Source: Gonapodya sp. JEL0774
Lineage: Eukaryota
Direction: 5' to 3'
DNA length: 64,000 nt
Assembly (NCBI GenBank): GCA_027604505.1
Contig: JADIIX010000052.1
Coordinates: 1-64,000 of the forward strand
Positions 7,331-57,100 of this stretch are shown piece after piece. Position numbers and translations under genes: made by a program. The notes under the pieces were generated by a model. The model saw nothing but the letters and a program-made list of their open reading frames with translations, was not told the origin of the DNA and did not search any database. Within the stretch, counting starts at the first letter, position 1. Each line of letters begins with the position of its first letter.

Positions 7331-9212
7331 CTACGCGTCCCCATTGCTGTTTCCACTGGGAACACCACAGGATCCTCCCACCACCACACTCCTCTCCCGA
7401 CCGACAACCACATCTCTCACAAGCTTCATGGGCGTCAAGGATACTGCAGCAGTCGGCGTTAACGTCGGTGTCAGTTGCGCCGTTGATACCGACGACGCAC
7501 TGGAGGCCGAGGATGACAAGTCGGTTTTCATTGTGATGGACGGTGGCGAGATCGGCGAGCTGGGTGTGCTCGATGAGAGTCGTGGTGGACGGGAGCGCGG
7601 GCGGCAGGTTGTACTGGTAGCCTGTGCAGGGCAATCCAGCGGCATGGAAGCACCGGTCGAGGGGTTGCGAGATAGTCGGTGAGGTTGTGTGTTCGAAGAT
7701 CCAGAGTGGACAGATGTGAAAGTGAATGGGAATAAAGGTTCGGACGGGCTGGAAGGGTGAGAGGATGATGCGGGGCGAGGGATGTCCGCATGGTGGATTG
7801 GAGACGGTGGGGATAGATGAAGCACTGGAGGGGCGTTTTGCATCACAGAGAGCAAGTTTGCAGGAGCCGTTATAACGGGCAACGAATCCATCCAGCTACC
7901 AGGAAGAGTGGCGCCATTGGCCATCTCCGGGTCTGCATCCTCATTCTGGACATGCACACTGTCATCCCACGCGCCAACCACACCCATGGCACCAAACTTG
8001 GCAAGTCCTTCTAGGTGCCAGCTTGCGCCTGAAAGCTTCGCGGGATTTGCTGTAGCGAGGAGTGGACGTACAGGAGGCGAGAAGGGCAGGCGATGGGCCT
8101 GCAGAGATATTTGATGAACGAGGAAGCGCCGGAGTGGGACCAGCGGGAGGCGGCGATGCGCGAGGGGGTTTGCCGGAAATGGAATAGTTGAGGGTAGGAC
8201 TGGTGCGGTGAAAATACAGCATGAGAAGAAACGTATTCGGTTTGCGAATCGAACGATAGGCCTTTCAACGCCTCTCCCTTGTTTCCGAACATTCCTTTTC
8301 CTCGAGCTCTGATGTAATCACTAACAATTTTGACGATTGGCTACTATACGTACTCGCTAGGAGATCGAATCTCTCAAGAACAGATCGGAGAACTGTGACA
8401 GCGTGTGACAGTTTGGCTTCCAGAGAGTTGATAGCGGAAACTAGTGAGTGATAAGAGGCGAAACATCAAAAGAAGGTCAGATTACGGATATGAAGGACAA
8501 TGAATAAACACTCGCGGGAACCGTGTGACCAACAGGGACCTCAACGGGCAACTCACTTTTAGTGAGGGACTCGGGCACATCCAGCCAGTACTCCTTTTCC
8601 TCGATATCTCCTTCCTGGTCTTCTTCCTTTTCGCCACGTTGTGGGCACCGAAAATGCAGCACAGACGACGTGCTACCTGACACTTCTGGCTCCCTTCGAA
8701 CCATAAATGCCGGCGGGCTTTTAGCTGCACCTGGTCTACGCACGGAAGCATCACCCAGTATACTACGACTAGCCCATGGATATGAGGTACCTGGGGAAAA
8801 GAAGCGACGTGTATGCGCGGCAACAGCACCATCGACAGCGCGAATGTATGCGGATTTGGCGCGTATCGCACGGTCCACGCAGGCCCTAATAACGTGTCAC
8901 AAAAGCGCAAGGCAAAAAGTAAGATATGAGCGTTGCGCGTCAGCAATTCGTTGATATGCTCTGCAACCACCCACAGCACCATCACTTCGGCGAGGCCGGT
9001 GTTCCCCGCATGCAATTTCCCTCGCGCATCGCCCGCCAACAAGGCTACGTTGAATCTCTTCAGTGGCTTTCGGTCGAGTACTGTGGTATTCTTCAGAGCT
9101 TTCTTTCTCAACGCCGTATGCGTTCCCACTTCCAGCAGTTCGTCGCCGCTGCTTTCCGTGTCCGAACTTGCATCTTCATTTAAAACATTCATTTCTGCCT
9201 GTTCGATATGAG
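7331..9212 (-). CDS. Hypothetical multi-exon protein (S/P/T-rich C-terminus); upstream exon(s) not found, possibly cut off by the adjacent transposon
   Basis: Minus-strand ORFs 8482-9192, 8477-8878, 8011-8292 and 7331-7987 in CpG-normal sequence. An acceptor-like CTACAGGAGTAG precedes SHIEQAEMNVLNE at about 9210. Confidence 0.35.
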
Positions 9213-9255
9213 ACTACTCCTGTAGCGTATGAAAGATTGATCGAAACAAGTATTA

Positions 9256-9476
9256 CAAGGGCAGTAGGAGGTCTGTGCACCCGCTGCACTACCTGTACTG
9301 GTGTCTTTCCAGCATCAGATTTTGCTCCAGGTTGGCGAGCCACTCTGCCTTCTAGCCTGCCCAGGGCTCCCAGGCTGCCTAAGTGGCTACACCAACCTGC
9401 CAGAACCTAGTAAGGGGTCCCACCGAGCCAAGTGCTTCACCCAAAGGATAATAAGCACCTCCCTGTGGTTTGGGAG
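9256..9476 (-). ncRNA. Candidate Fanzor omegaRNA (nuRNA) scaffold at the transposon 3' end
   Basis: Dense inverted repeats directly downstream of the Fanzor ORF: 9262-9300 (CAGTA/TACTG, AGGT/ACCT, GTGCA/TGCAC), 9328-9399 (CAGGTTGG/CCAACCTG, AGCCACT/AGTGGCT, AGCCTG/CAGGCT), 9432-9458 (GTGCTT/AAGCAC) and 9459-9476 (CTCCC/GGGAG). The position matches where TnpB/Fanzor omegaRNAs are encoded. Confidence 0.55.
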
Positions 9477-9599
9477 AGATACCGTGGACGAAAAAAGAAA
9501 TTCGAAAATTGATAGAAGAAAATGAGATCTGGGATGTGGGTTATGGACCCATTGAAAACAGAAAGATAACAAAATCAAAATTTAAAAAACCGCACGTAG

Positions 9600-12500
9600 T
9601 CTTTTGAAAGAAGGACAATATGCAGTAAGATACTCACAATGAAGGTCCATGTGAGAGTTGACACCCTCAATGACGCGCGCCTTTGGATAGAAGAAGAGAT
9701 AGAGAATGTTCCTCACGGCATTGAGGTCGCGGTTCCAAGTCACACCACAGTTGGGAGTCACACACAATCTGCTGTGGTTCCAGTGCAAAATAGGAATAAA
9801 AAATTACATTGAGCTAAAAACAGTTGGCAGATGAGATCTGCACGTTCAAAACCACTCACCTCACACCCCATAGCTTCTGTTTTAACTTTTACCCCTTGGT
9901 TCTTTGGGAAATATTCATGGCAAACAAAGCAGATCCTACTTGTCTGAAACTCATTGATAAGTACCGCCAACACTCCAGCAGACACAAACATTCTACAAGT
10001 GCGTTTATTGGGACTCATAGGATGTCTGGGACTGGACTGGTTGAAGGAGGTGGCACCCCATGCAATGATGCAATTGGACGGCTCTCTTCTGTGGGTAAAT
10101 TGCTTGACAAGCTTTGAAAGGGCCCGTTGTTGGCCGATCTTGGACTTGAATTGAAGCCTTTGTGGGAAAGGTGGAGCAATAAATTCAAAAGATTATCATT
10201 TCCTTCTGTGATAACAACAAAAGCAAGACTGGTCAACTCACTTGCTCCAATGATGCTGGCTGTAAAAATCAAGCGTTTGCCCAAAATGATCTAGGAAAAA
10301 CACGAGATATAGATGTAGGCTGACTGGGTCCACAGTTTTGGCGGAGGCATGTTCTTGTTTATTCGCTGTATCTCCTCGTTGTTGTCCATCCACTTTTGGT
10401 GGAGATTCCTGGCAAAGTACAAACATTTTGAGTTTAAACTTGCCTAAGATTCCAAGTCTCAATATGCCAGCAATGAACTCACCTGGCGGAGTTGAAACCT
10501 GCGAGATTGTAATACTCCCTTGCAGAAAAGCCACTATTGTAGTCAGCATCCCAGCCACAGTCATCTTTTGCGTGGAGATACAGTTGAGGTATCTTGAGGT
10601 TGTTGGGGATATCCACTGATGCATGAAAGGTCGTGTGGTCTCAACATGGATCACAGGATCCCACCTGATTCGCAGCCAAGCTTTGTTCCTCTGGAGGTTT
10701 CTTCAAATACTCTGACAATTTGAGGGGCACTCCAGATGCCACAGGCTTCCGCATATGCAGCTGTAAACTTGTGCCGTCCAAACAAATGCTGAGTAAAGTG
10801 GTTGCTGTTGGTAGTGAAACAGTGAATGGAAAAAAGAAGGATCAACAAGATTGCCAGGATTCCAAAACTGATCACCAAAATTTGTAGGTACCTCAATGCA
10901 AACTTGTGGTTCACAGTTTCAAATCTGTCAATGTCAAAGAAGGCCAGTGCCGTGTGGTCAGCACCTCCATCATGAGTTCCCACAGTAAACCCATGATCTC
11001 ATTCCCAACTTCTTGATCCACATTCAGATGATTGACTAGGGTCTGTGAAAGTGAGATAACTTCCCAAAAACCTCACGAATAAAGAAGAGGTATCCGGACT
11101 TGGACCTTAGCCAGGGGCTGATGTGTAAAGAATCTACAAACTCCCTCAATATCTTGGTTGGGCTCCATAATGGTTTGCACCGCATGAAGGACCAGGACCA
11201 TCCCTGCCCAATTCCATTGGAGTTGGGCCTCTGACATGCTCAGGTGGCCAAATGAGGACTGGATGAATGTGAAAGTGTTCCGAAGTGCACATGCGACTCT
11301 GAAATGGAGACTTCTTCCTGGCAGAAGGTTGGGGTTTGGAACTTCATGCACAACACAAAGTCCAGATACTTTAGAAGAGAGTTGGTGGAACTGAATGGTT
11401 GCTTGTCTGAGAATAGCATGAGATCAAAAGTTCTCAATCACCACTTAAAAAACCCAATACAACAACCCAAACTCACAAATAAAGATACAGTTAAACATGT
11501 GTGCTGTGATTATCCTTGCTGAGCTTTTAGAAATGTGCACCATGTTGGCGCCTGCCTCTCCATTGAAGGGACTGAGGGCTATCCATGCCAGCATAAAGCA
11601 CATGGCCCGAATCCTTTGAGGTGCTCCCACCAAATGGACGTCTTGAAGTTGGTGCGTGAATCATTAACTATCCCTGCAAAGATATTGCAGAGTCCTAAAA
11701 GGGCAATGGAGGTGATTTTGTGTAATGCACTGTCAGCCCACAAGATTTTGTGGTAAGTACTGACCACTCATGTTTACAAAAGGCATGACTGGTCAGATCA
11801 AGTTGTATGAGGCTGCCATCCAGTTTTGAAGATGGGGATCAGTTGCCAATTTTTGGACAGCAGGATTAAAGTTAGGCGCCACTTGACAAGTAACGCTATT
11901 GAAACAAGGGTGGACCAATCCTGCACCAATTTAGTAGTTAGGAATTGGTATGCAGCAACAATGTGTGAAGTGCAGTAAAATTGAAGCCTGTTGGTGATGT
12001 GGTAAAGCCACAGGACCTCGTGAAAGCAAACCTTGTTTTGGTGTTTCTTGTAAAGGAACAACTGCAAAGCAGAGTTGGCAGAGTTGGTCAAAAACAGGCA
12101 ACTGATGGTGGATTCTGGAAAGTCCGTACTCACAGTTATCGTCCTCCTCAATATTTAGGTGCTCTATTTTGAAGTCTTTGGAGCGCTTCGCCATCCCCTG
12201 GTAGTGTGACAATAGAACCTTTGACTAAAGGAATTGGACACAAAAGTCATGAGATTCAGGAAATATGGAAAACAACGCCTGCAGAAAAATATTTCTTGCA
12301 CCTGAGCTGGTATCATCGTGTAGATGAGCTTGTGCCAAATGTGATGTTGCAAAGGAGGCCTAATTACATGGTGGTGGTGAGAAGTTGCTATTGGCTGTAG
12401 CAGCTCCAGATAAGGATTTTCCTGTCAAATTCGTGGACTTGTGCATGGAATCAGGCTTCAGGTGGATGTTGGAGTTGAGGCCTTTGTCCCAGTCTCTTCG

Positions 12501-12670
12501 GAACGAGGCCATCTGTTTGATGTCCTCCTGCTCCATCCTTTTTGCCTTTTTTCTAAGCTGCTTGCCTTGAGTCCACCTGGTGCCACATTTCAGATTGGTC
12601 TCTTGGTGGGGGGAATTGATTGTGCTCGTTGAGCGCAAGACTGCATTAGGTAAGCAATAGCAGCTGTACA
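9600..12670 (-). pseudogene. Fanzor (Fanzor1-like, TnpB/Cas12-family RNA-guided RuvC nuclease) pseudogene with spliceosomal introns
   Basis: Removing introns 10409-10482, 10158-10241 and 9769-9859 and correcting two 1-nt frameshifts gives VGSCDP(C*)..GFSAREYYNLAGFNSARNLHQKW..MP/SAKT..TLDFYSQHHWSKLQFKSKIGQQRALSKLVKQF..IIAWGATSF..VLINEFQTSRICFVCH..QKLWGVRLCVTPNCGVTWNRDLNAVRNILYL. This reads as RuvC-I, bridge region, RuvC-II, Cys4 zinc ribbon and RuvC-III. Upstream remnants include FDIDRFET..FTTNS (a decayed TDG) and TNFKTSIW. Both ends are approximate. Confidence 0.88.
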
Positions 12671-13099
12671 TGAACGAGGATGTGCTGTGCAGGAGTAGAC
12701 AAACTGTTGAAAATCAATTACGTTTCCTTTCTTCCCTTAGTGATGTGTATACAATAGTCTCAACAAGGGGCGTGGTCCCCAAGATGCCCACGAGGTGCAC
12801 ACCCTCTATATCCATGGTATGAAGGAACAGTAGAATTTTGGTATTCAGCCCATGGCACAGGGGTGTGGGTTGTAGAGGTAAATTTGGTAAGGAAAGTTAA
12901 ATTTCAGCTTCAAAGGGACAGTTAAAACTCCATTTTGAGTCAATCCAATGCCCAATTTTAATCGTCAAGTCACTAAACCACAGAATGTGGTTTGCTCTTC
13001 AGCAAGCGTCCCCATGTCCCTGTTGGTCACTGTCCGTGTCTCTGGAGTTGGTCTGGATCCAAAGTCACAAGGGACAGACATTCTCAGGAAGCAAAGGGC

Positions 13100-14520
13100 A
13101 ATTTCATTGCCCAAATGAAAATTGCAGGATCTTTTGGATCGTACATGTGGGTTTGTTTTGTCCTCAACATGTTCTTTGCGTCTGCAAAGTGGGTTAATCA
13201 AATGGATGCTTACAAGTCCGATGGGTAACAGACCAGCATCTCAAGCCAACAGATGTGGCACAAAATCTCTGTACAAGAGTTGTGTGACAGAGGCAGAGGT
13301 AGGTAGCATGTTGCTCTGCTTCTGTGGCTGAATAAACAGAAACAGTGAATATCTTTTGATCTGCAACCCTCCTGCCATCATTGCAATTTGAACATCTGGA
13401 GAGTAGATCATCTGCATCCAAAGGTTCTGAGGAATAAGCAGAGGTGATTGCAACAAAAGCTCACTCACATTCAGCCACCTCAGATAATGGCAGACCAAGA
13501 CATGATGCACAAAACGTGGAGCTTTGGCTGCATGTCTTGATCTGCCATTATCTATCTATCTAGTGCAAGTTGCTCCAATTCTCTCCTACAAAAACCCTTG
13601 AAAGTTGACAGCATTAGCGTAGCCTTTCACCAGAGACCACAAGGCAACAGGTGATGGTGGATGTGATATGGTGTTGGTGTCACCTTCTATTGTGAAAGCT
13701 CAGGGGCACTGTCTATTGCTCAAGTCCTTGTGCCAGGCACCCTTCCATCTGTACTAGAGGTCACACCATCAAAGTTTGACCCAGTTCCAAACATTCGGCT
13801 CTGTGAAACGTCAGAAGTACGTTGCTGAGTGAGGGGGTTTCAGAGTAGCAAAGGCAGAGCCAATGGGTATAATATTCTTTGTCCTTGGACATGGGTTTCT
13901 CAAATAGAGCCTGTTCTCCCTTTTTGGGATAGCCATAGTAAGGAGCTTCATTGAGTTTAAATCCGCTTTTCATCCATGGCCTTCTAAGTACTCTGGGGTA
14001 AACTTCTCATCTGTTTCTAAAAAGCATCTATCTCGTTTGCTCTCCCAGTTGCCTCAGAAGCAACATAGCGGAGCTTCTTCCTGGTGATGTCATTTCTCCT
14101 GAGAAAGTTACTGATGGTCCGCTGAGTAAATTCAATTCCAAAAGAGTCTGAAACCCATTGAATTCTCGGTGTGAGGGATCAGACATAATCCACTGGCAAA
14201 TTTGATGCTCCAAGTCCATTGCACACTTCTCTTTTCAGTCTCGGAGTCTCCCAGCTGGTGAGCTGCTTACCACTGGCGATGCAATCCATCTGCTTATGGT
14301 CCTCAGAGAGACGCCAAACGCTTCAGCAAGCCACTGCATTGGAACTTCGCCTTTTTGCCTTAATATCTTGAATGCATGGATTCGCCTTGTGGTCTATCCC
14401 ATGTTCGGAGTTCTTTTCCTTGTAGCAAATGTGCATTTGGACTTGACAAGTAAAAATTTGTGCAACTGCCCCACTCCCACACAAAAGGCAGTCTCACCAA
14501 CGGTGTGGAGTTATTGAAGT
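13100..14520 (-). pseudogene. IS630/Tc1-mariner-type DDE transposase pseudogene
   Basis: HTH QWLAEAFGVSLRTISRWIA (about 14281-14340). First catalytic motif AMDE/SGFKLNEAPYYGYPKKGEQA with a 1-nt frameshift (about 13910-13980). Second motif (LAL/I)DNGRSRH (about 13530-13570) followed by SCLGLP, and FADAKNMLR at about 13160-13190. The third acidic motif (NPxE) was not located. Confidence 0.72.
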
Positions 14521-17500
14521 GCTGAAAGCTGTATCACAGAATACACTCCAATAATTCACCACCTCACCCCCAAAGCCTGAGAGCCTGCATACATATTCTT
14601 TATCACTCAATCATCAAGTCCTGCCACCTCCCTGGCCTCCTCGCCAGTCCCATTGTTGTTGTGGGTTGCTCTGTGTGTGTGTTGTGAGACAACAGCTAAA
14701 GGCAGGAGGTTAGCCAGAGCCAGAACAACAGTCGTCCCAGTTCACCCCAACGCGTCACCCCAGGTCACGGCACCTGTTCCTTGGATAGATGTGATATCTA
14801 TTAGTATATAGATGCATATAGAGTAGGTTTTTAGATTTTTTTAGTGATCATATTTTTGCAGGCCACTCAGCAGCAGCGGCTTAGTGACCACATGTACACG
14901 AGTTCAGACATACACATTGAGTTTCAGGAAGGAACCCAACAGTTTTGCCGCAAACCACAACACGTGTACCCAACAAACTTGGCTCCTCTCACTCAAATCA
15001 ACTATTCTGGAAGCCGTACATAAAAAAATTAGGATGATTGGTTGGACAAGGTCAATTTTGACAGGAATCAAGCTGAAAATAACAAGAGCAAAAGAGGTGA
15101 GCAGTATCGGTTGCAAACCCATTTTGCAAGAGGAAGGGGCCTTTTCTTGGATTGGAGGTACGCAAACCAAGTTTATGTGTACAGAGAACATTTGATTGAT
15201 TTACCAAAGTTGTTTCATGGGTTTCAGGCTTGCAGAAGATCCAAATTCCGATCGTACATCTTTGGCAACTTGAACCTGCAAACAGGACTCTGGAGGAGCA
15301 AAAAGCAGTGGTCATCTCAACTCGAACAAATTGTACTCTGGTGGACTCCAATGATATCACCATGAAGCCTGCAAAGTCAACAGAAAGAAACATGATTGCA
15401 ATGTCGAATCAACCAACCAACAACAAATAACAATGAAAAAGGAGGACCACAGACAGGAGCAGGAATGCCGAGGTAAGATAACTTCAGGAGTCAGGGTACC
15501 TCCACTGTTGATGCTTGCAGCAAGCGGTGCCCTGTCACCTGCTGACACAACCCTCCAGCCTCCACCTCAACGCTCCGCCAAGTCAGCTACTCAATGGAGT
15601 CCCACTGACACGGTCGGAGTGGGGAGCAAACAGAATAGTTGCACCCCGTGTATATATCGTGAGCCATGAACAGAATGCACACACATAAGTTTACTCCCAA
15701 CTGACACATATTTTGCTGTGACTTATATTTGGGTCCGAATCCACCTCCATTCACCTACCATCACCTTGTACACCATTGCATCCATACAGATCCGCTCAAA
15801 ACGTACCCACTCCTGTTCCTCTGGCTTGTACTTCATACCTTGACAAAGCCACCAGCTCAACCAGCGGCAAGAGCAAATTAAATTTGAATTGGACTTGTTT
15901 GGTCTGTGGGGTGGGGGGACCAAGCTGGAGAACCGCAGTGAACTGGAAATTCAAACTCAGGACGCAGCGTAAGAATACATAACTGATTGTTTGCATACCC
16001 ACACTGAAACAAAGCACAAACAGATTTATGCTGCCGCCATGATACACCTCCACTTGCCTAGTGTTGCACCCCACTTTAGCACCCTCGCTCCTGATCCCCT
16101 CAGTCTCCATCCCAGTAGGAGCTACACCAAGTTACTGGTGTAATTCAAAGCTGCCATGACACAAATTCACCTGGAAATCACATGTGGGGGGTTGGGATGA
16201 GCACAGGAACTGGATGAACCATTTACCATGAACACTGAGCAAGGGTTCAGGGCTCAGGTAGGTGCATTTTTCTGCTCATCCTTTGACTCAGTGCATTGTG
16301 ACCTACATAATTCTGATCAAGACACCACCACTTACTCAGCATTACACCCCACACCTGATGGCTGACACCACAGTCCACAGCACTTGTGCAGTCCTTGCAG
16401 TACTGGGCTTGCTGCGCCAATTAACCTCTTTATCCCCTTCGACCATGTAGGTGAGAGATTCCTTGCAAAATTGATGGCTAACGGATATTTTGTTGTGAGA
16501 ACCCATATTGTTTGCAATGTAAACCTGCTGTTGTGTTACTGTGACATTCAGGGGGTCTGACCACAGGCAATATATATGTCAAGTGGCACTATGTAGCCAG
16601 ATTTACAGACAATACATGTGATACAGCCTGGACTCACACAACTGTCACAGTCATTCCACACTGCTAAGTACAATGTCAGTGTGGAGCATAAAAGTCTAAA
16701 AAGTCTTATATTTGTAGCTAGTATTGGCGCCTCAGAATCCACAAGTAAATGTAAGTTCCGCCTTCAGTCTGATCTTGGTTGTGTGCTGAAGTGATCTGCT
16801 GGTGTCATTTACAAATTAATTACACTTTTGTGGTGAGTGAGAGACTGAACTTCTGCTGTGTTCCTATTGCACAATTACGTCACTACTCACTGCAAGACAT
16901 CATAAATTCTCTCTTTGTGGTTGTGAAAGTCACTTGGTGTGGTGAAGGCAGGTTCTGAAAAAATTCTCTATCCTTTCATTTGGACTGACAACAGTGCTCT
17001 GTCACTCTGTGCTCACAGTGGCACTTCCATGACTGTTCAGTTTGTCCAACCTGTAAGACATAAGGCAGGAACGTCATATTGTTTGGTGCTGATAGCAAGA
17101 TGTAGTCCTTTGGCAACTGCTGAAGGTCTGAGTGTTAGTGCACTGTCCTGCAGGAGCTACTTGTTGCAACTGAGTAACCTAATGAGATCCAAAGGGTCTG
17201 GGATCTCCTCACATAAATCAAGGTTTTTGGGGAGTTTGAGTGGTGCAATTTGTGGAGCGTGCAATGGTTCTCATTTGAGGAACACAGATCAGGGTATGCA
17301 GAAAGCAAGTTGTGAATCAGTAACTGTCATGACTGGGACATCAGTGAATACTGAAACCTATACAATAAGCCCAATTTTCAGTGAACCTTGTGTATTACAG
17401 GTCATTTCCAATGAGAAATTCCTTGCCTTGTATCATCTGGATGGTTTTCACATGTGGGGATAGGCCACACGGTGGGCGTTTCACACGCCAAGAGAGAGAT

Positions 17501-18154
17501 CACTTTCCTCAATCAGAGAGGCTCACCAAAAAGAATGTAGCTGCAATTGTGCATGGCATTTGTGTGTCCTATGTGTCATATTTTGACCAAAAACTCGTTG
17601 GTTACACCAGCAATCACAAGCAGTGGAAAGTTGCCCATGACACAACCAGGTGCCCAGTTCCACACAGACAAAATGGAGAGAAGCTAAAAGAGAGGCTACA
17701 ATGTCGATCTAGAGACTGAAATTGCTCGAGTTTGGTGTTACTTCACCATATATTTGAGTTTCACGGGATCTCTCAGAAACCTACAACTTCTTGCGAAATA
17801 CATTAATTTTGATTAATTCTCGAGAGTAAAAATTTCTGGAGCTCGTGCTGCGCGCAAAATCAAAATTAAGTGGCCGCCACAGCGTCCATTAGAATGACAC
17901 ACGAAAGACTGATGAACACAGGCGGCCATCTTCCAAAAAAGATCTGCAAACCATCTATTTACTATCATTACGAGTACAATGGCTCAAGTGGATGGTACAT
18001 TTTAACAACAAAACACGTATGCTGTGACGACTTACGTAACGTGGAATAGGTATGCACAGTTTCACCCAAAAAGAACATTGAAACTAAGAGATAGATGGAG
18101 AAGGGTAGTTAGTGCAAAGTCACGCGGCCACAGAAGAAACCGAGGGGCTCACCT

Positions 18155-20212
<2,058 letters not shown>

Positions 20213-27108: not shown

Positions 27109-27406
27109 GGTTGGGACACCTTCCCAAAGTGACGTGCTGTGAACGATTAGGGGATGCAGGATGATGATCTTGGCCGAATTCAACCACAATTGACAAAAAG
27201 TGAAAGATTGAGATTGCTCGTTCAGCTCCTAAATAGTGTAGATACAAAGAGAGCGTGGAGATAGTACGAGGCTAAAAGTACATCAGAGTGCGGAATGCAA
27301 AGAAAGGTCCATTAGAGAGCGCGAACATTCTGCACAGAAAACAATACGAAATTAGAGTTCGGAAGAACGTCGAACCATAAGGTGCAAGGCATACCGAGTC
27401 CATTGC

Positions 27407-29444
<2,038 letters not shown>

Positions 29445-35253: not shown

Positions 35254-37319
<2,066 letters not shown>

Positions 37320-44765: not shown

Positions 44766-45512
44766 AATGGAATTTTGGTGCGCGAGTAAGGCGTTGTTTC
44801 ATTGGACATACATTAGAGATTTACTTAAATTGAGATCTTTCTACTACTGAGTCAGCCGAGCCAATTCGCCTTCTGACACCATGTTTTTTTGCAAGAGAAT
44901 AGAATAAATGTGACACATTTTGAAGACAAGCATGAAACCGATCTCCGTCTATCCCGAGATAAAAACCTGCACGCATATTGAGCATTGACAGAGAGAGTTG
45001 TAAAGTCGCGGAAAAGAAGGAAACGACATGGTCCGTTCAGCGCTCTTCGGTCTGTAATTTCAGAGTGTCTCTCCCTACGAAAGGCCACCCATCAAATCTC
45101 ATTCAATATAGCTTTCACTTGGCCCTTTCTGTTTGAACATGGACTGACTGTCGTCCCTGCTAATGCTTCCGCCACAGCTTGGGCTGCGGCATGAAGGGTG
45201 AAAAAGCCTCTGTGCGGAATCCCTCGGATTCACTGAAACACCCGAATCTAAGCACCCCAACTGACAATATCCGAGTGCTTACTGTTTTATTGGACGCTGT
45301 GCGTGGACCACTTATAGTAGTACATAATAATGTATGTACATGTACATAATAAGTGGATGTCCGTTTTTCCAAAGCCCACTCGACCCTTCAGCCCCCTCCG
45401 CAACCTGCCTGGATCCTCAAACGGTGGGGGGCGTACTACACCGCATTCGGTGCATTCCCCACCAATATAAAAACCTTGGGGATTTCGTCCAAGTTACAAG
45501 AAAGAACCAATA

Positions 45513-46925
45513 ATGCCTTCCGGTCGACAAATCCATTCTATTTTAGCGCTGGCGCTCTTCGCTTCCGCCGCTTTCAGCAGCACTGTCTCTGCAAGTACCC
45601 GGCGACAAGCGCGCACTTGCGACACGATATACGCGGCGTTTAAGTCAGGCACGACGATGACCAGCACTGACTACAGTGACTGGAACGCCTGGAAGTGCTC
45701 GACATGGTTCTCTTCGGGGATCGGTGCTCCTGCCACAAGGACCTGTGACACCATTTTCGCAGCGTATAAAGCCGGTACCCAGATGGTGGCTGCGGACTAC
45801 AGTGACTTCAACGCTTGGGGTTGTGCGAAGTGGTTCCCTTCTGGAATCGGATCCGCATCGCCACCTCCTGCAGCACAGCGCACATGCGACACAATTTACG
45901 CAGCCTTCAAGGCTGGAACGCAGATGTCCAACCAAGACTATAGCGATTGGTCTGCTTGGAGCTGTGCAAAGTGGTTTGCTTCCGGCATTGGCTCTCCGTC
46001 GTCTCCTCCGGTTAGTTCCCGAAATCACAAAACACCCGTCGCCGTAACTTACTCCTGCTTTGTACTTTCATTTGCGCATGGATCAGGCTACACCACCACC
46101 TTCTCCTCCCGCGACTGGTGGGTACTCGGTGGTGCCCGGAGGACTGTCAGGTGACGCCAAAACGACTCGCTACTGGGACTGTTGCAAACCCTCCTGTAAG
46201 TAGAGAACACTCTCTTCTATCTCGCCACTAGCTGCTTTTTCTCAGCTGACACAATTTCTGCATTGCTGTTAGGTGGATGGTCTGGTAACACTGGTCTCGG
46301 TGTCGGCTCCCGCATCTGTAGCAAATCCGGAAACACCCTCACCGACAGCAACGTCATGAGCGGTTGCGGTGGAGGTGGATCAACCGGACCTGAGGACGGT
46401 TTCTCATACACGTGCATTGACAACCAGCCGATTGTTATCAACGACCAGCTCGCCTACGCGTTCGCTGCCGCGCCATTCTCGGACATGTCGTCGTGCTGTG
46501 CATGCTATGAGTTGACTGTGAGTACGTGCATAGTTGGGAGTGAGGATGGAACAGTAGCTAAAAACGAAAACCATTTTCTTGTCATTCAGTTCACCAGTGG
46601 TCCCGTCGCTGGCAAGAAGCTCGTCGTACAAAAAGTAAACACTGGCGGAGATCTTGGCTCAAACCAATTCGACCTCCAAATCCCCGGAGGCGGTCTCGGC
46701 ATCTTTGACGGGTGCTCGAAGCAGTTTGGCGTCGACGCCAACACCTGGGGCGCTCGTTACGGGGGTGTCTCTTCTGCCGCTGGATGCGGCGTGCTCCCTC
46801 AGTCCCTCCAGGCTGGCTGTAACTTTAGGTTCGGATGGTTCCAAGGTGCGGACAACCCCTCGGCGACGTTCAAGCAGGTCACGTGCCCTGCGGAACTCAA
46901 GGCCAAGAGTGGCTGCTCGAGGTAG
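45513..46925 (+). CDS. Secreted GH45 endoglucanase with three N-terminal 38-aa Cys/Trp repeats
   Basis: Signal peptide (ILALALFASAAFSSTVSA), TTRYWDCCKPSC at about 46160-46195, CCACYEL, GKKLVVQKVNTGGDLGSNQFDLQIPGGGLGIFDGC, WGARYGG, GCNFRFGWFQGADNP, CPAELKAKSGCSR*. Confidence 0.95.
45612..45992 (+). repeat. Three in-frame 114-bp (38-aa) repeats in the GH45 gene
   Basis: 45612-45725, 45738-45851 and 45879-45992; consensus RTCDTIyAAfKaGTqM...DYSDwnAW.CakWF.SGIG. Confidence 0.93.
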
Positions 46926-54120: not shown

Positions 54121-57100
54121 ATGCCGGTCGAAAACTGCGACACAGTGACGAGATTACACTCTAAAAATGTGTCAGTACCATCTTCGACAGCAGAAACGCT
54201 CTTGTTGAGCCAGCAGACGGAGGAGTGGACTTTGAGCATGCAGCGGGACGTGCTCACGGATAGAATTGCCACCGATGGGAATCCAAAGTCGCTTCTATAC
54301 GTTGTTCATGAAGCCGCGCGGCTAGTTGGTGGTTCAAAAGTGCGTGTTTCTAGTGGAGGTCTCGTATTATCCCGATTCTCAGCTTCGCCGTCTGCGACAT
54401 TTTGCTGTTCGATCCCATTGGATAATCTCCCCAAGATCCCTACGTCCTGTGCTATACGAATTTCACCGTCGGGTGGCGTGTCCATTCTTCTAGAAAATCA
54501 GATCCACCTTCTGGGGGAGGATTGCTCGAAGCACATAGCTTCGATTACACTGGGTGTGTCCTGGGTGAAAGCGTTCTGAGGATTTCCACTAAATCTATAT
54601 GCAACTAGCATCTCCTCCTGATGTTGCCAATTTTTCCGGTTCTGGCCGCTTCCTCGCTTGTGCTGATAAGTCCGGCGCCCTCCACTTCATTCACCATGAG
54701 TCGGGCACCGTGGTCTTCTCTCAGAGGGTCATAACTGAGGATCACGCCGAGCGACTTATGATTGGACCCACCGGAAATGTGTTTGATTGGATCGGTTTCG
54801 CAGCAATGGAAAAGTGCGTATAAGCGTCGCGAGAATTGATGATCGTGATTGGAGGGTAAGGACTCCCAGTGATGTTCTTTCTTTTGAAAGAACTAGGCAC
54901 TGGGACCAAAAGATGATACCTCAATATCGTGATTGGAGGGCAAGGACTCCCAGCGATGTTCTTTGTTTTGAAAGAACTAGGCACTGGGACCAAAAGATGA
55001 TACCTCAATATCGTGATTGGAGGGCAAGGACTCCCAGTGATGTTCCTTGTTTTGAAAGAACTAGACACTGGGACGAAAAGCTCTTGAAGGCGACGGCCCT
55101 CCATTACTTCTTGGAGCTGCTCGTAGTCTGATTTTGCTCCAGACAGGTGTATATAATCTAACTTACCGTTGTTGATAGGACCACTGCTGAGGAACTTATA
55201 GTGATCACCGCTGATAGTGTGATTCGGCGGTTCTCCAATATTGATTTCTCTGCACTCGAAGCCGCTTTGGCAGGTGGTGACATGGAGGGAGCAAAACATG
55301 TAATTTGTCACATACATCTTTCAATGCTTGTGTGTTATTCTAACCGTATGCCCTGATGGACATTCGCTCTGCCAGCTGAAGCGTTCAATCACTCTCGAAA
55401 TTGTACCACAATCTCACCACTTGTGGCATTCTTCGGCTCTGACCGTATCCACTCCCAAAGATTTGAGTTTGATCCTGACTGGGACAGGGGATTATGTCCT
55501 TTCAAACTCCAAGCTTACCCACCCTCCGTTAATCACCAAAGGGATTGAGAGAGAGGCTCTTGGCTGCCGAATTTCGAAAGTCCAGCACGCAATGGAAGGG
55601 TGGGGTCGTTGTTTTATCTTAACGGACGACGGTGACATCGCTGTCGCAGACCCACAAACGTGAGTGACGCTTGAAGCACCCGAGATCCTTGAGGCAACTG
55701 AGCAGATTCAATTTTTTGCCACTAGTTTGGAAATTTATAAATTCATTTCTTTCACGGTTCCGGTCTCAGACTTCAGGATCACATCAGACGATCGAATCGT
55801 GGCCTTGACAATTCCTATCCCTGCTGTCGACTACGCACGACGGTTGCTTGTCTTTCATGTCACAGCAGGTCGTCTTGAATCTGACTTCGAGGTTTCGGAA
55901 CACACTTGGTTGGCTCAGACAGACCACCGAACTACTTCGGATCATATTCCATATGTGGAAGCGGACGGTACATTGGATGCTCCTGCTTTGGCTCTCAGAA
56001 GTATCTCTCAATCAAGTCCCTCCGCGAGGATCGCGGCTCTCGTACAAAATTGCCGTTTTGAGGAAGCACGCGATATTGCTTCGAAATTCGGATTCGACGA
56101 AAAGGAAGTGTTGCGGTCTAAACTCGAGAATGTCCTCGAGAATATGGTCGCGGACCCTTCCGAAGAGAATTTGATTGCGTACAATGCTCCACTACTGATT
56201 GCGGATCTCAGTGCACTTGGTGACCAGCAGCTCACTGTTGCATTTGCACTTAAGGCTCTTCTGACGACAGAGGATGGAATCTTTCAGCTGCTTTCATATG
56301 CCCGAGAGGTAATAGCAGCTGCTCAATTGGAGCAGGATATTGGGAAGGTTGGCGCGGAAGATCTACATGATATTGGAGCGGCAATGCGGCTCCTGGGGAC
56401 TCTCAATCTAATTTCCGACAATCCCTTCACCGTCGAAAATTGGAGGCTTTGTAGGGACGCAGATCTCCGAAGTTTGCTATTAGAATGTGCAGAGAGTGGT
56501 AATTTTGAACAGGTGGTGATTATTTGGAGACGACACCACACTGGTGAGTTTTCGATCTCTTCAGTAAACTCTTTATCAATCGAGATTTCATGACCTTACT
56601 TTACAGAGCAGGATTTGTTAACCGGTGTATGTGAGATATTGGTGGCGTTACCTGAGACAGTTCACTACGGTCATTTAAACGCATGGTTGAGAGATGAAGT
56701 TCTCCCCTTACTTGAAGACATCGAAGAAAGGTGTGAATGAACTACAAGGAAACTGGATAGACTTTCAAAAGCCTGGTCTTCTGATTTTCTTCGCGAACCT
56801 GCAGGTATCGAGTGAACAGTTGGCTCGCCCACCGTGCACGAATTGTGGAAGAACTCGAACGACGTCCACATGGGGCACTCGAAACTATCAAACTAGTGGA
56901 CGTCAACTGCTCGAAGAACGTTGAATTACAGGGTCCGGCCACGCCATTTGGTTTCATAAGTGGTAGCATCCGGGCTGCGAAAATGACTGAGTGGGACGCT
57001 CTGGCTGGGATGGATCATGAGAGGTAAGTCAATGCAATTTCCATAAGTCATTTCCATGATAGGGAAGCGTACTTGATGCTTTGTGTGTCTTCTACACACG

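Follow-up and report, generated by a model that had tools for sequence, protein, structure and literature searches.

A decayed, intron-containing Fanzor1 gene beside a transposase relic in the Monoblepharidomycete fungus Gonapodya sp. JEL0774

Results

Gene layout and lesions

We analyzed a 64,000-nucleotide (nt) stretch of Gonapodya sp. JEL0774 DNA (contig JADIIX010000052.1, positions 1 to 64,000), referred to as the window, which carries on its minus strand the broken remains of a gene for Fanzor1, an RNA-guided nuclease of eukaryotes. The closest relative is HDU93_001104 (KAJ3337404.1; P0001 below), recorded from the same organism as "hypothetical protein, partial" without any Fanzor annotation. 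The two are 78% identical over the C-terminal half, and P0001 runs contiguously across the sites of all four phase 2 introns that we place in the window gene (Table 1). A first-pass annotation of the window, made from the letters and a list of open reading frames (ORFs), had found three of these, of 74, 84, and 91 nt with GTGAGT..AG ends, and its minus-strand coordinates for them are correct; it overlooked the fourth, of 103 nt. The region that it assigned to the gene, 9600..12670, has homology support only up to ~10944.

The residues expected of a RuvC nuclease are still encoded. As the annotation had claimed, the D-E-D triad is in place, with positions that match SpuFz1 motifs via profile alignment, and so is the Cys4 ribbon (codons at 9929-31, 9920-22, 9762-64, and 9747-49). 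The motifs it quoted are all present and in order after splicing, with the correction that RuvC-I reads DPC, not DPG, and is followed two codons past SCDP by the in-frame TGA. We read DPC as decay because P0001 keeps DPG (DPGR). The annotation had also proposed a continuous frame after correction of two 1-nt frameshifts. Relative to P0001 the first is indeed a 1-nt loss, the second is a 7-nt insertion, and the TGA breaks the frame. Approximately 12 nt also appear, by eye, to have been lost near 10945. The window copy has one stop, two frameshifts, the DPG-to-DPC change, and strong CpG loss. It cannot encode an intact nuclease, and it was rightly called dead.

Table 1. Features of the Fanzor1 locus and its surroundings, in window coordinates
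Feature	Position	Strand	Basis or remark
Putative decayed 5' half (REC/WED)	10945..12670	-	GT..AG ends, host-like sizes
Exon, 3' part (FFDIDRFETVNHKFAL)	10892..10944	-	82% identity with P0001 residues 8-24; also recovered with P0011; 5' boundary not fixed
Intron, 103 nt, phase 2, GTACCT..CTCAG	10789..10891	-	P0001 alignment; 2/5 spanning distant homologues
Exon: WED xDG motif (LDG), RuvC-I D 10650-10652 (DPC), premature TGA 10641-10643	10483..10788	-
Intron, 74 nt, phase 2, GTGAGT..GCCAG	10409..10482	-	P0001 and distant homologues
Exon: helical region after RuvC-I, 1-nt frameshift ~10338	10242..10408	-
Intron, 84 nt, phase 2, GTGAGT..CAAAG	10158..10241	-	P0001 and distant homologues
Exon: IAWG, RuvC-II E 9950-9952, first CxxC 9920-9931, 7-nt frameshifting insertion 9880-9886	9860..10157	-
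Intron, 91 nt, phase 2, GTGAGT..AGCAG	9769..9859	-	Tandem acceptor (other AG = 9772)
Last homology-supported exon: second Cys pair, RuvC-III D 9726-9728 (WNRD)	9645..9768	-	74% identity with P0001
Structured stretch, downstream edge of island; candidate omegaRNA or right end	9281..9400	-	Fold z-score
CpG-depleted island with Fanzor and transposase relic	9261..17695	.	Change-point fit; 8.4 kb
Decayed IS630/Tc1-type transposase, upstream of Fanzor, same strand	13250..14400	-	HTH_33 E 1.4e-6

Support for the splice joins

The spliced aligner was written for this analysis; it allows frameshifts and, in the P0001 run, gave a small bonus to GTGAG/GTAAG donors. A spliced alignment had been proposed as a check by the first-pass annotation, and with P0001 (223 of 284 aligned residues identical) it placed all three of the annotated introns, as well as the fourth, exactly at the boundaries in Table 1. 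As P0001 is contiguous across all three, these joins are not a matter of chance. We repeated the alignment without the donor bonus for 14 distant homologues (~30% identity), counting the alignments that span each site. The 74- and 84-nt introns were recovered exactly in 6/11 and 7/12 cases and the 103-nt intron in 2/5. For the 91-nt intron, 2 of 11 alignments were exact, 6 gave nearby ends, with the acceptor at 9772 of the tandem CAGCAG, and 3 placed no intron.

With 4 introns in 948 coding nt, the C-terminal half has an intron density of 4.2 per kb. The GTGAGT hexamer occurs six times in the minus strand of 9500-12800, where ~1.7 are expected, and 33 times over the whole strand; in a nearby host beta-tubulin gene, a 69-nt intron starts with this donor as well. 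The frame stays open past 9645 down to a stop at 9582-9584, and the true C terminus of the gene is uncertain. A further GTGAGT donor lies at 9637 on the minus strand, where the coding region ends. Behind it come a T-rich stretch that looks like an intron and, next, the structured block; a 3' intron from 9637 to 9529 or ~9463 is possible.

Family assignment

Taken singly, fragments of the gene match known families only weakly. Pfam gave Cas12f1-like_TNB at E 0.03 and 1.4e-4 (the latter with the last exon) and NCBIfam gave guided_TnpB at E 0.0027 with that same exon, so that both databases by themselves stay below their cut-offs at this locus. Against the PDB, single fragments gave E 0.59 for PpFz1 and 0.04-0.66 for TnpB-like proteins. 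A search with the 99-aa exon 9860-10156 led to P0001, the one named relative, and to 17 representatives in total, P0001 included.

An 18-row alignment of these relatives (A1) gave a profile that ranks SpuFz1 first (3.3e-29), followed by PpFz1 (1.3e-25), GtFz1 (2.3e-11), and mimivirus TnpB-like L79 (3.4e-9), which we take to be a Fanzor2; TnpB/Cas12f-type proteins come below L79, from 2.8e-7, and the order was repeated in a second profile run. Because the relatives' profile thus puts SpuFz1 ahead of Fanzor2 and of TnpB/Cas12f, we assign the locus to Fanzor1. A1 and a second alignment, A2, had been seeded with the window exon, and a separate profile was therefore built from 27 of 50 metagenome loci, which had been found by their WNRD DNA motif and supplied rows of at least 180 aa. 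The reconstructed read-through matches this independent profile at E 5.6e-39.

The same profile bears on the annotation's claim that ORF-based mining would miss the locus. It matches the raw 144-aa stop-to-stop ORF 9761-10192 at E 6.5e-12 (computed at the database size of Jiang et al.), the only match among the 158 window ORFs of at least 100 aa, and ORF-plus-profile mining therefore detects the gene. Mining that keeps only hits with a complete triad might nevertheless lose it.

For the comparison with the SpuFz1 structure, also put forward by the annotation, we used an AlphaFold2 model of P0001, not of the window protein, with a mean predicted local distance difference test score (pLDDT) of 64.5 and a predicted template modeling score (pTM) of 0.56. 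With this predicted fold, Foldseek listed SpuFz1 in ranks one to four (E 2.5e-6 to 4e-5) and GtFz1 in fifth place. A wide VIA-align search gave no hit with Z of at least 8; GtFz1 reached Z 5.9 (root mean square deviation 3.5, 151 aligned), in a list dominated by helical bundles. ESM Atlas features reached 0.97 with clusters from viruses and eukaryotes that carry the labels DUF8286 and Cas12f1-like_TNB.

The read-through, with X at the breaks, contains the C-terminal Fanzor motif D-X(125,275)-[TS]-[TS]-X-X-C4 zinc finger-X(5,50)-RD of Bao and Jurka (PMC3627910), with a D-to-TS gap of 183. The rearranged RuvC-II glutamate (Ealt), which together with DPG and TDG is listed as a Fanzor motif (PMC10711439), lies six residues ahead of CxxC in EFQTSRICFVC. 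At the TDG position of the WED domain the window reads LDG, P0001 SDG, and P0007, P0011, P0012, and P0015 TDG; the S-to-L change fits CpG decay. Sequence and predicted fold both place the locus nearer Fanzor1 than Fanzor2, TnpB, or Cas12f. The quick tree comprises 15 rows of relatives without names, and the Fanzor1 call rests on the profile and fold ranking.

By sequence comparison this is a divergent fungal lineage, with ~30% identity to anything else that we found. The A2 profile search returned two proteins, and a P0001 search among proteins of 542-2000 aa found none. No locus was confirmed when viral and metagenome contigs were searched with P0001, a close DNA pattern had 0 matches in viral contigs, and P0015 alone had no Fanzor match in the PDB.

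Two observations concern the intronless relatives. Loci L003, L017, and L032 (the same DNA as L051-L053) lie on one 188-kb contig, also catalogued as a giant-virus assembly, that holds three intronless Fanzor1-like ORFs of 976-986 aa. Loci L001, L009, L014, L036, and L047, on metagenome contigs, are Fanzor1-like ORFs of 612-855 aa that lack introns and annotation and contain both DPG and Ealt.

P0001 and a 63-nt segment

P0001 is much nearer the ancestral state than the window copy. Its annotated model differs in lacking 21 codons that hold the RuvC-II E and the first CxxC. Exactly these codons make up 63 nt in the window (9902-9964, minus strand) that are in frame and bounded by GTACTT..CCAAAG. 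Their absence from P0001 is probably a gene-prediction artefact, and possibly an alternative splice.

Upstream 1.7 kb

The 1.7 kb upstream of the supported exons would leave room for the enlarged N-terminal REC/WED lobe of a 600-700 aa protein and holds candidate introns at 12062-12133 (72 nt), 11695-11764 (70 nt), and 11407-11476 (70 nt), all GT..AG; by eye, motifs in the region resemble Fanzor REC/WED. The formal comparisons of this region gave little. BLASTP of 11076-11390 against P0015 yielded E 0.81, spliced alignments with single proteins scored inside the control range, and hhalign reached 16.5 at best against a control maximum of 17.9. ESM Atlas returned no usable match, and the 18-row profile gave at most 3.0 bits, fifth among window tiles. 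Spliced profile alignment was borderline, at 70.7 against a maximum of 69 for 23 controls, and under looser penalties the score of 124.8 was beaten by 2 of the 23. When 53 loci were compared with the upstream, downstream, and transposase parts of the window, no DNA or translated similarity was found.

CpG-depleted island and decay

The gene lies in an island in which CpG/GpC is 129/414 (0.31), against 3160/2994 (1.06) outside. Among the 61 residue differences from P0001 (4 of them due to misalignment around the second frameshift), 28, the stop among them, are consistent with deamination of CpG sites in the window copy, where the null expectation has a mean of 5.2 and a maximum of 14. The end branch of the window copy in the quick tree measures 0.27 versus 0.012 for P0001. 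This is likely the pattern of a methylated, decaying repeat. Repeat-induced point mutation was set aside because TpA is not elevated in the island. The 46 ORFs of at least 48 aa from the rest and the edges of the island had no meaningful Pfam match. One part of it, 14400-17700, is 3.3 kb of CpG-depleted DNA for which the same holds and is likely further decayed mobile DNA.

Transposase relic and structured stretch

The transposase relic in the same island is interrupted by stops and frameshifts. Its helix-turn-helix parts match known families, and its catalytic part has no family match; DDE-like motifs were read by eye, and the transpos_IS630 model gave E 2.3e-4 and 0.03, below the cut-off. 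A comparison of the transposase DNA with plasmids gave no match. Within the relic lies a 72-nt hairpin (13482-13553) with 23-nt arms that are 96% complementary. It is the strongest fold of 267 background windows (z -6.8), matches Rfam by chance only, and may be a small palindromic insertion. One arm of a 15-nt pair, 8525-8539/13016-13030, falls beyond the bounds of the island, and the pair was treated as a chance match.

Downstream of the gene, 9400-9281 has a fold z of -4.6, the best of 19 windows in a fine scan; 2 of the 267 background windows reach -4. A longer window, 9270-9465, gave -2.5 and the opposite strand -2.6, and 9281-9400 had no match in Rfam. The stretch could be the omegaRNA or right end of the element, the end of another element, or a portion of the upstream region of the next gene.

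Other features of the window

Three beta-tubulin paralogues lie within 20 kb, at ~18190-20000 (-), 27400-29400 (-), and 35300-37300 (+). Two are in tandem, 9.25 kb apart, and one is inverted, and their exons are 82-97% identical. A glycoside hydrolase family 45 (GH45) endoglucanase occupies 45471-46925 (+; E 1.6e-49), with three Cys/Trp-containing repeats ahead of it (45669-45991) that may be binding modules. On the minus strand, 54842-55093 holds three tandem 84-nt repeats in an open frame.

Discussion

Multi-exon Fanzor1 genes are already in print, which removes the novelty that the first-pass annotation had implied for introns in this family. The CRe-1/2/3 genes of Chlamydomonas reinhardtii have five and ten exons, backed by expressed sequence tags (Bao and Jurka 2013, PMC3627910), and intron-rich Fanzors with up to ~9.6 introns per kb were reported from a pipeline that included AUGUSTUS and Spaln (Jiang 2023, PMC10530073). 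What is new here is one dead member of a known family. We found no literature linking Fanzor with Gonapodya, and two supplement files of Jiang 2023 contain no such entry; the lineage may be listed in the supplementary tables that accompany Saito 2023 and Yoon 2023, which the search did not cover.

Among characterized systems, SpuFz1 of the fungus Spizellomyces punctatus (element SPu-1; PDB 8GKH, 9CEU-9CEZ) is the best PDB match by profile and by predicted fold. The two share the D/E/D triad with its rearranged E, a fungal host, and a G-to-E spacing of 35 in the window read-through versus 36 in SpuFz1 (G500/E536; PMC3627910). They differ in the D-to-E spacing (181 versus 158), and structural sequence identity, taken via P0001, is only 14-16%. 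SPu-1 is also a 2.1-kb element with a single ORF and inverted repeats of 30-33 nt (PMC3627910), whereas the window gene has at least four introns and no detectable repeats. The multi-exon structure resembles that of CrFNuc and CRe-1,2,3. These are algal, Helitron2-associated, multi-copy genes with expressed sequence tag support, their own RNA lies in the 3' untranslated region, and no in vitro cleavage was detected; the window gene, in contrast, is a fungal pseudogene beside an IS630/Tc1 relic. PGv-1 and PUl-1 likewise have a Tc1/mariner-type transposase near Fanzor1, together with defined inverted repeats and TA duplications (PMC3627910), neither of which was found in the window.

We consider it highly probable that the locus is what remains of a spliced Fanzor1 gene, which likely served a fungal DNA transposon as its passenger nuclease. 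CpG methylation likely silenced the gene before it decayed. By analogy with characterized Fanzor1 proteins, the ancestor would have been transcribed and spliced as host genes are. Its protein would have bound an omegaRNA from the right end of the element, the last 14-15 nt of which would derive from flanking DNA, as is the case for the guide of the Fanzor1 omegaRNA (PMC10432273). The ancestral nuclease would have cut DNA made up of the target-adjacent motif plus that flank, a combination present at the site that excision leaves empty, and repair off an occupied copy would have restored the element. Such restorative homing has been shown for TnpB and is proposed for Fanzor, for which only cleavage is listed (PMC13565253).

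An alternative is that the joins are artefacts and that the gaps arose when a Fanzor relic without introns, derived for instance from an endogenous giant virus, took up insertions at random. Many Fanzor1 relatives are indeed intronless, some of them viral, and no transcript of the locus was seen. This is nevertheless extremely unlikely, given that all four gaps run from GT to AG in phase 2, resemble host introns in size, and are located where homologues are contiguous, and that the flanking genes, such as those for beta-tubulin, G-beta, and GH45, are host genes. Another possibility is that the ancestor was not an active transposon nuclease and was either a binding protein with an RNA guide or a host gene that arose by domestication, possibly via a splice that removes the 63-nt segment with the RuvC-II E and first CxxC. 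The P0001 model omits exactly these 21 codons, their counterpart in the window is bounded by GT..AG, and the intron-containing CrFNuc formed a ribonucleoprotein without in vitro cleavage (PMC10530073). Against this, the frame stays open through the 21 codons, which encode the motif EFQTSRICFVC conserved in the family, as would be expected of an exon; the simpler cause is that gene prediction passed over a lesion or weak exon in the P0001 copy; all three catalytic residues persist; and the decay resembles that of a silenced repeat. We judge this alternative very unlikely.

Within the passenger-nuclease explanation, a narrower question is whether the Fanzor gene and the IS630/Tc1-type transposase once formed a single autonomous element, 5 to 8 kb long and comparable to PGv-1 and PUl-1, or are two separate insertions in a transposon graveyard. 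They share a strand and one continuous CpG-depleted island, the putative 5' end of the Fanzor gene lies ~0.6 kb from the relic, and elements joining a Mariner transposase to Fanzor1 have been described (PMC3627910). On the other hand, the ~3.3 kb of the island at 14400-17700, where Pfam matches nothing of note, may belong to other elements, and no terminal inverted repeats or TA duplication were found between 9150-9700 and 12550-17950, where the best matches in this decayed single copy equal those in shuffled sequence. We give the single element slightly less than even weight. As no such ends were found, residence of the gene in a transposon is inferred.

The lack of recognizable element ends is one of several points that weigh against the passenger-nuclease explanation. 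The intron calls come from sequence comparison and methylation is deduced from base composition only. The predicted structure is of moderate confidence and is that of P0001 rather than of the window protein. The upstream 1.7 kb, probably the gene's 5' half in decayed form, shows homology that is borderline or no higher than controls. The structured stretch lies ~250 nt past the coding end, whereas the 75-nt scaffold of SpuFz1 directly follows the stop, within the 80-nt region after it (PMC10432273). Finally, the sole intron-containing Fanzor assayed bound its RNA without cleaving (PMC10530073).

A bolder version, which we think unlikely, would make the locus a relic of an autonomous Tc1/IS630-Fanzor1 family of Monoblepharidomycete fungi. 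Its Fanzor gene would have had at least seven introns, its omegaRNA would lie ~250 nt downstream with one more 3' intron in between, and near-intact sisters, such as the locus of P0001, would provide the first intron-containing Fanzor shown to cut DNA. If this were true, the in-frame 63-nt GT..AG segment might let splicing toggle between cutting and noncutting forms of the protein.

The dead window copy is no tool by itself, and resurrection of its ancestor, which the annotation had raised, would call for the N-terminal half, the element ends, the target-adjacent motif, and the omegaRNA. Its value is as a pointer to the locus of P0001, a Gonapodya "hypothetical protein" that is now recognizable as a Fanzor1, and to possible intact copies. 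Jiang et al. saw no cleavage by the single Fanzor with introns that they assayed, so whether nuclease activity persists in intron-rich Fanzors could be tested on an intact member of this family.

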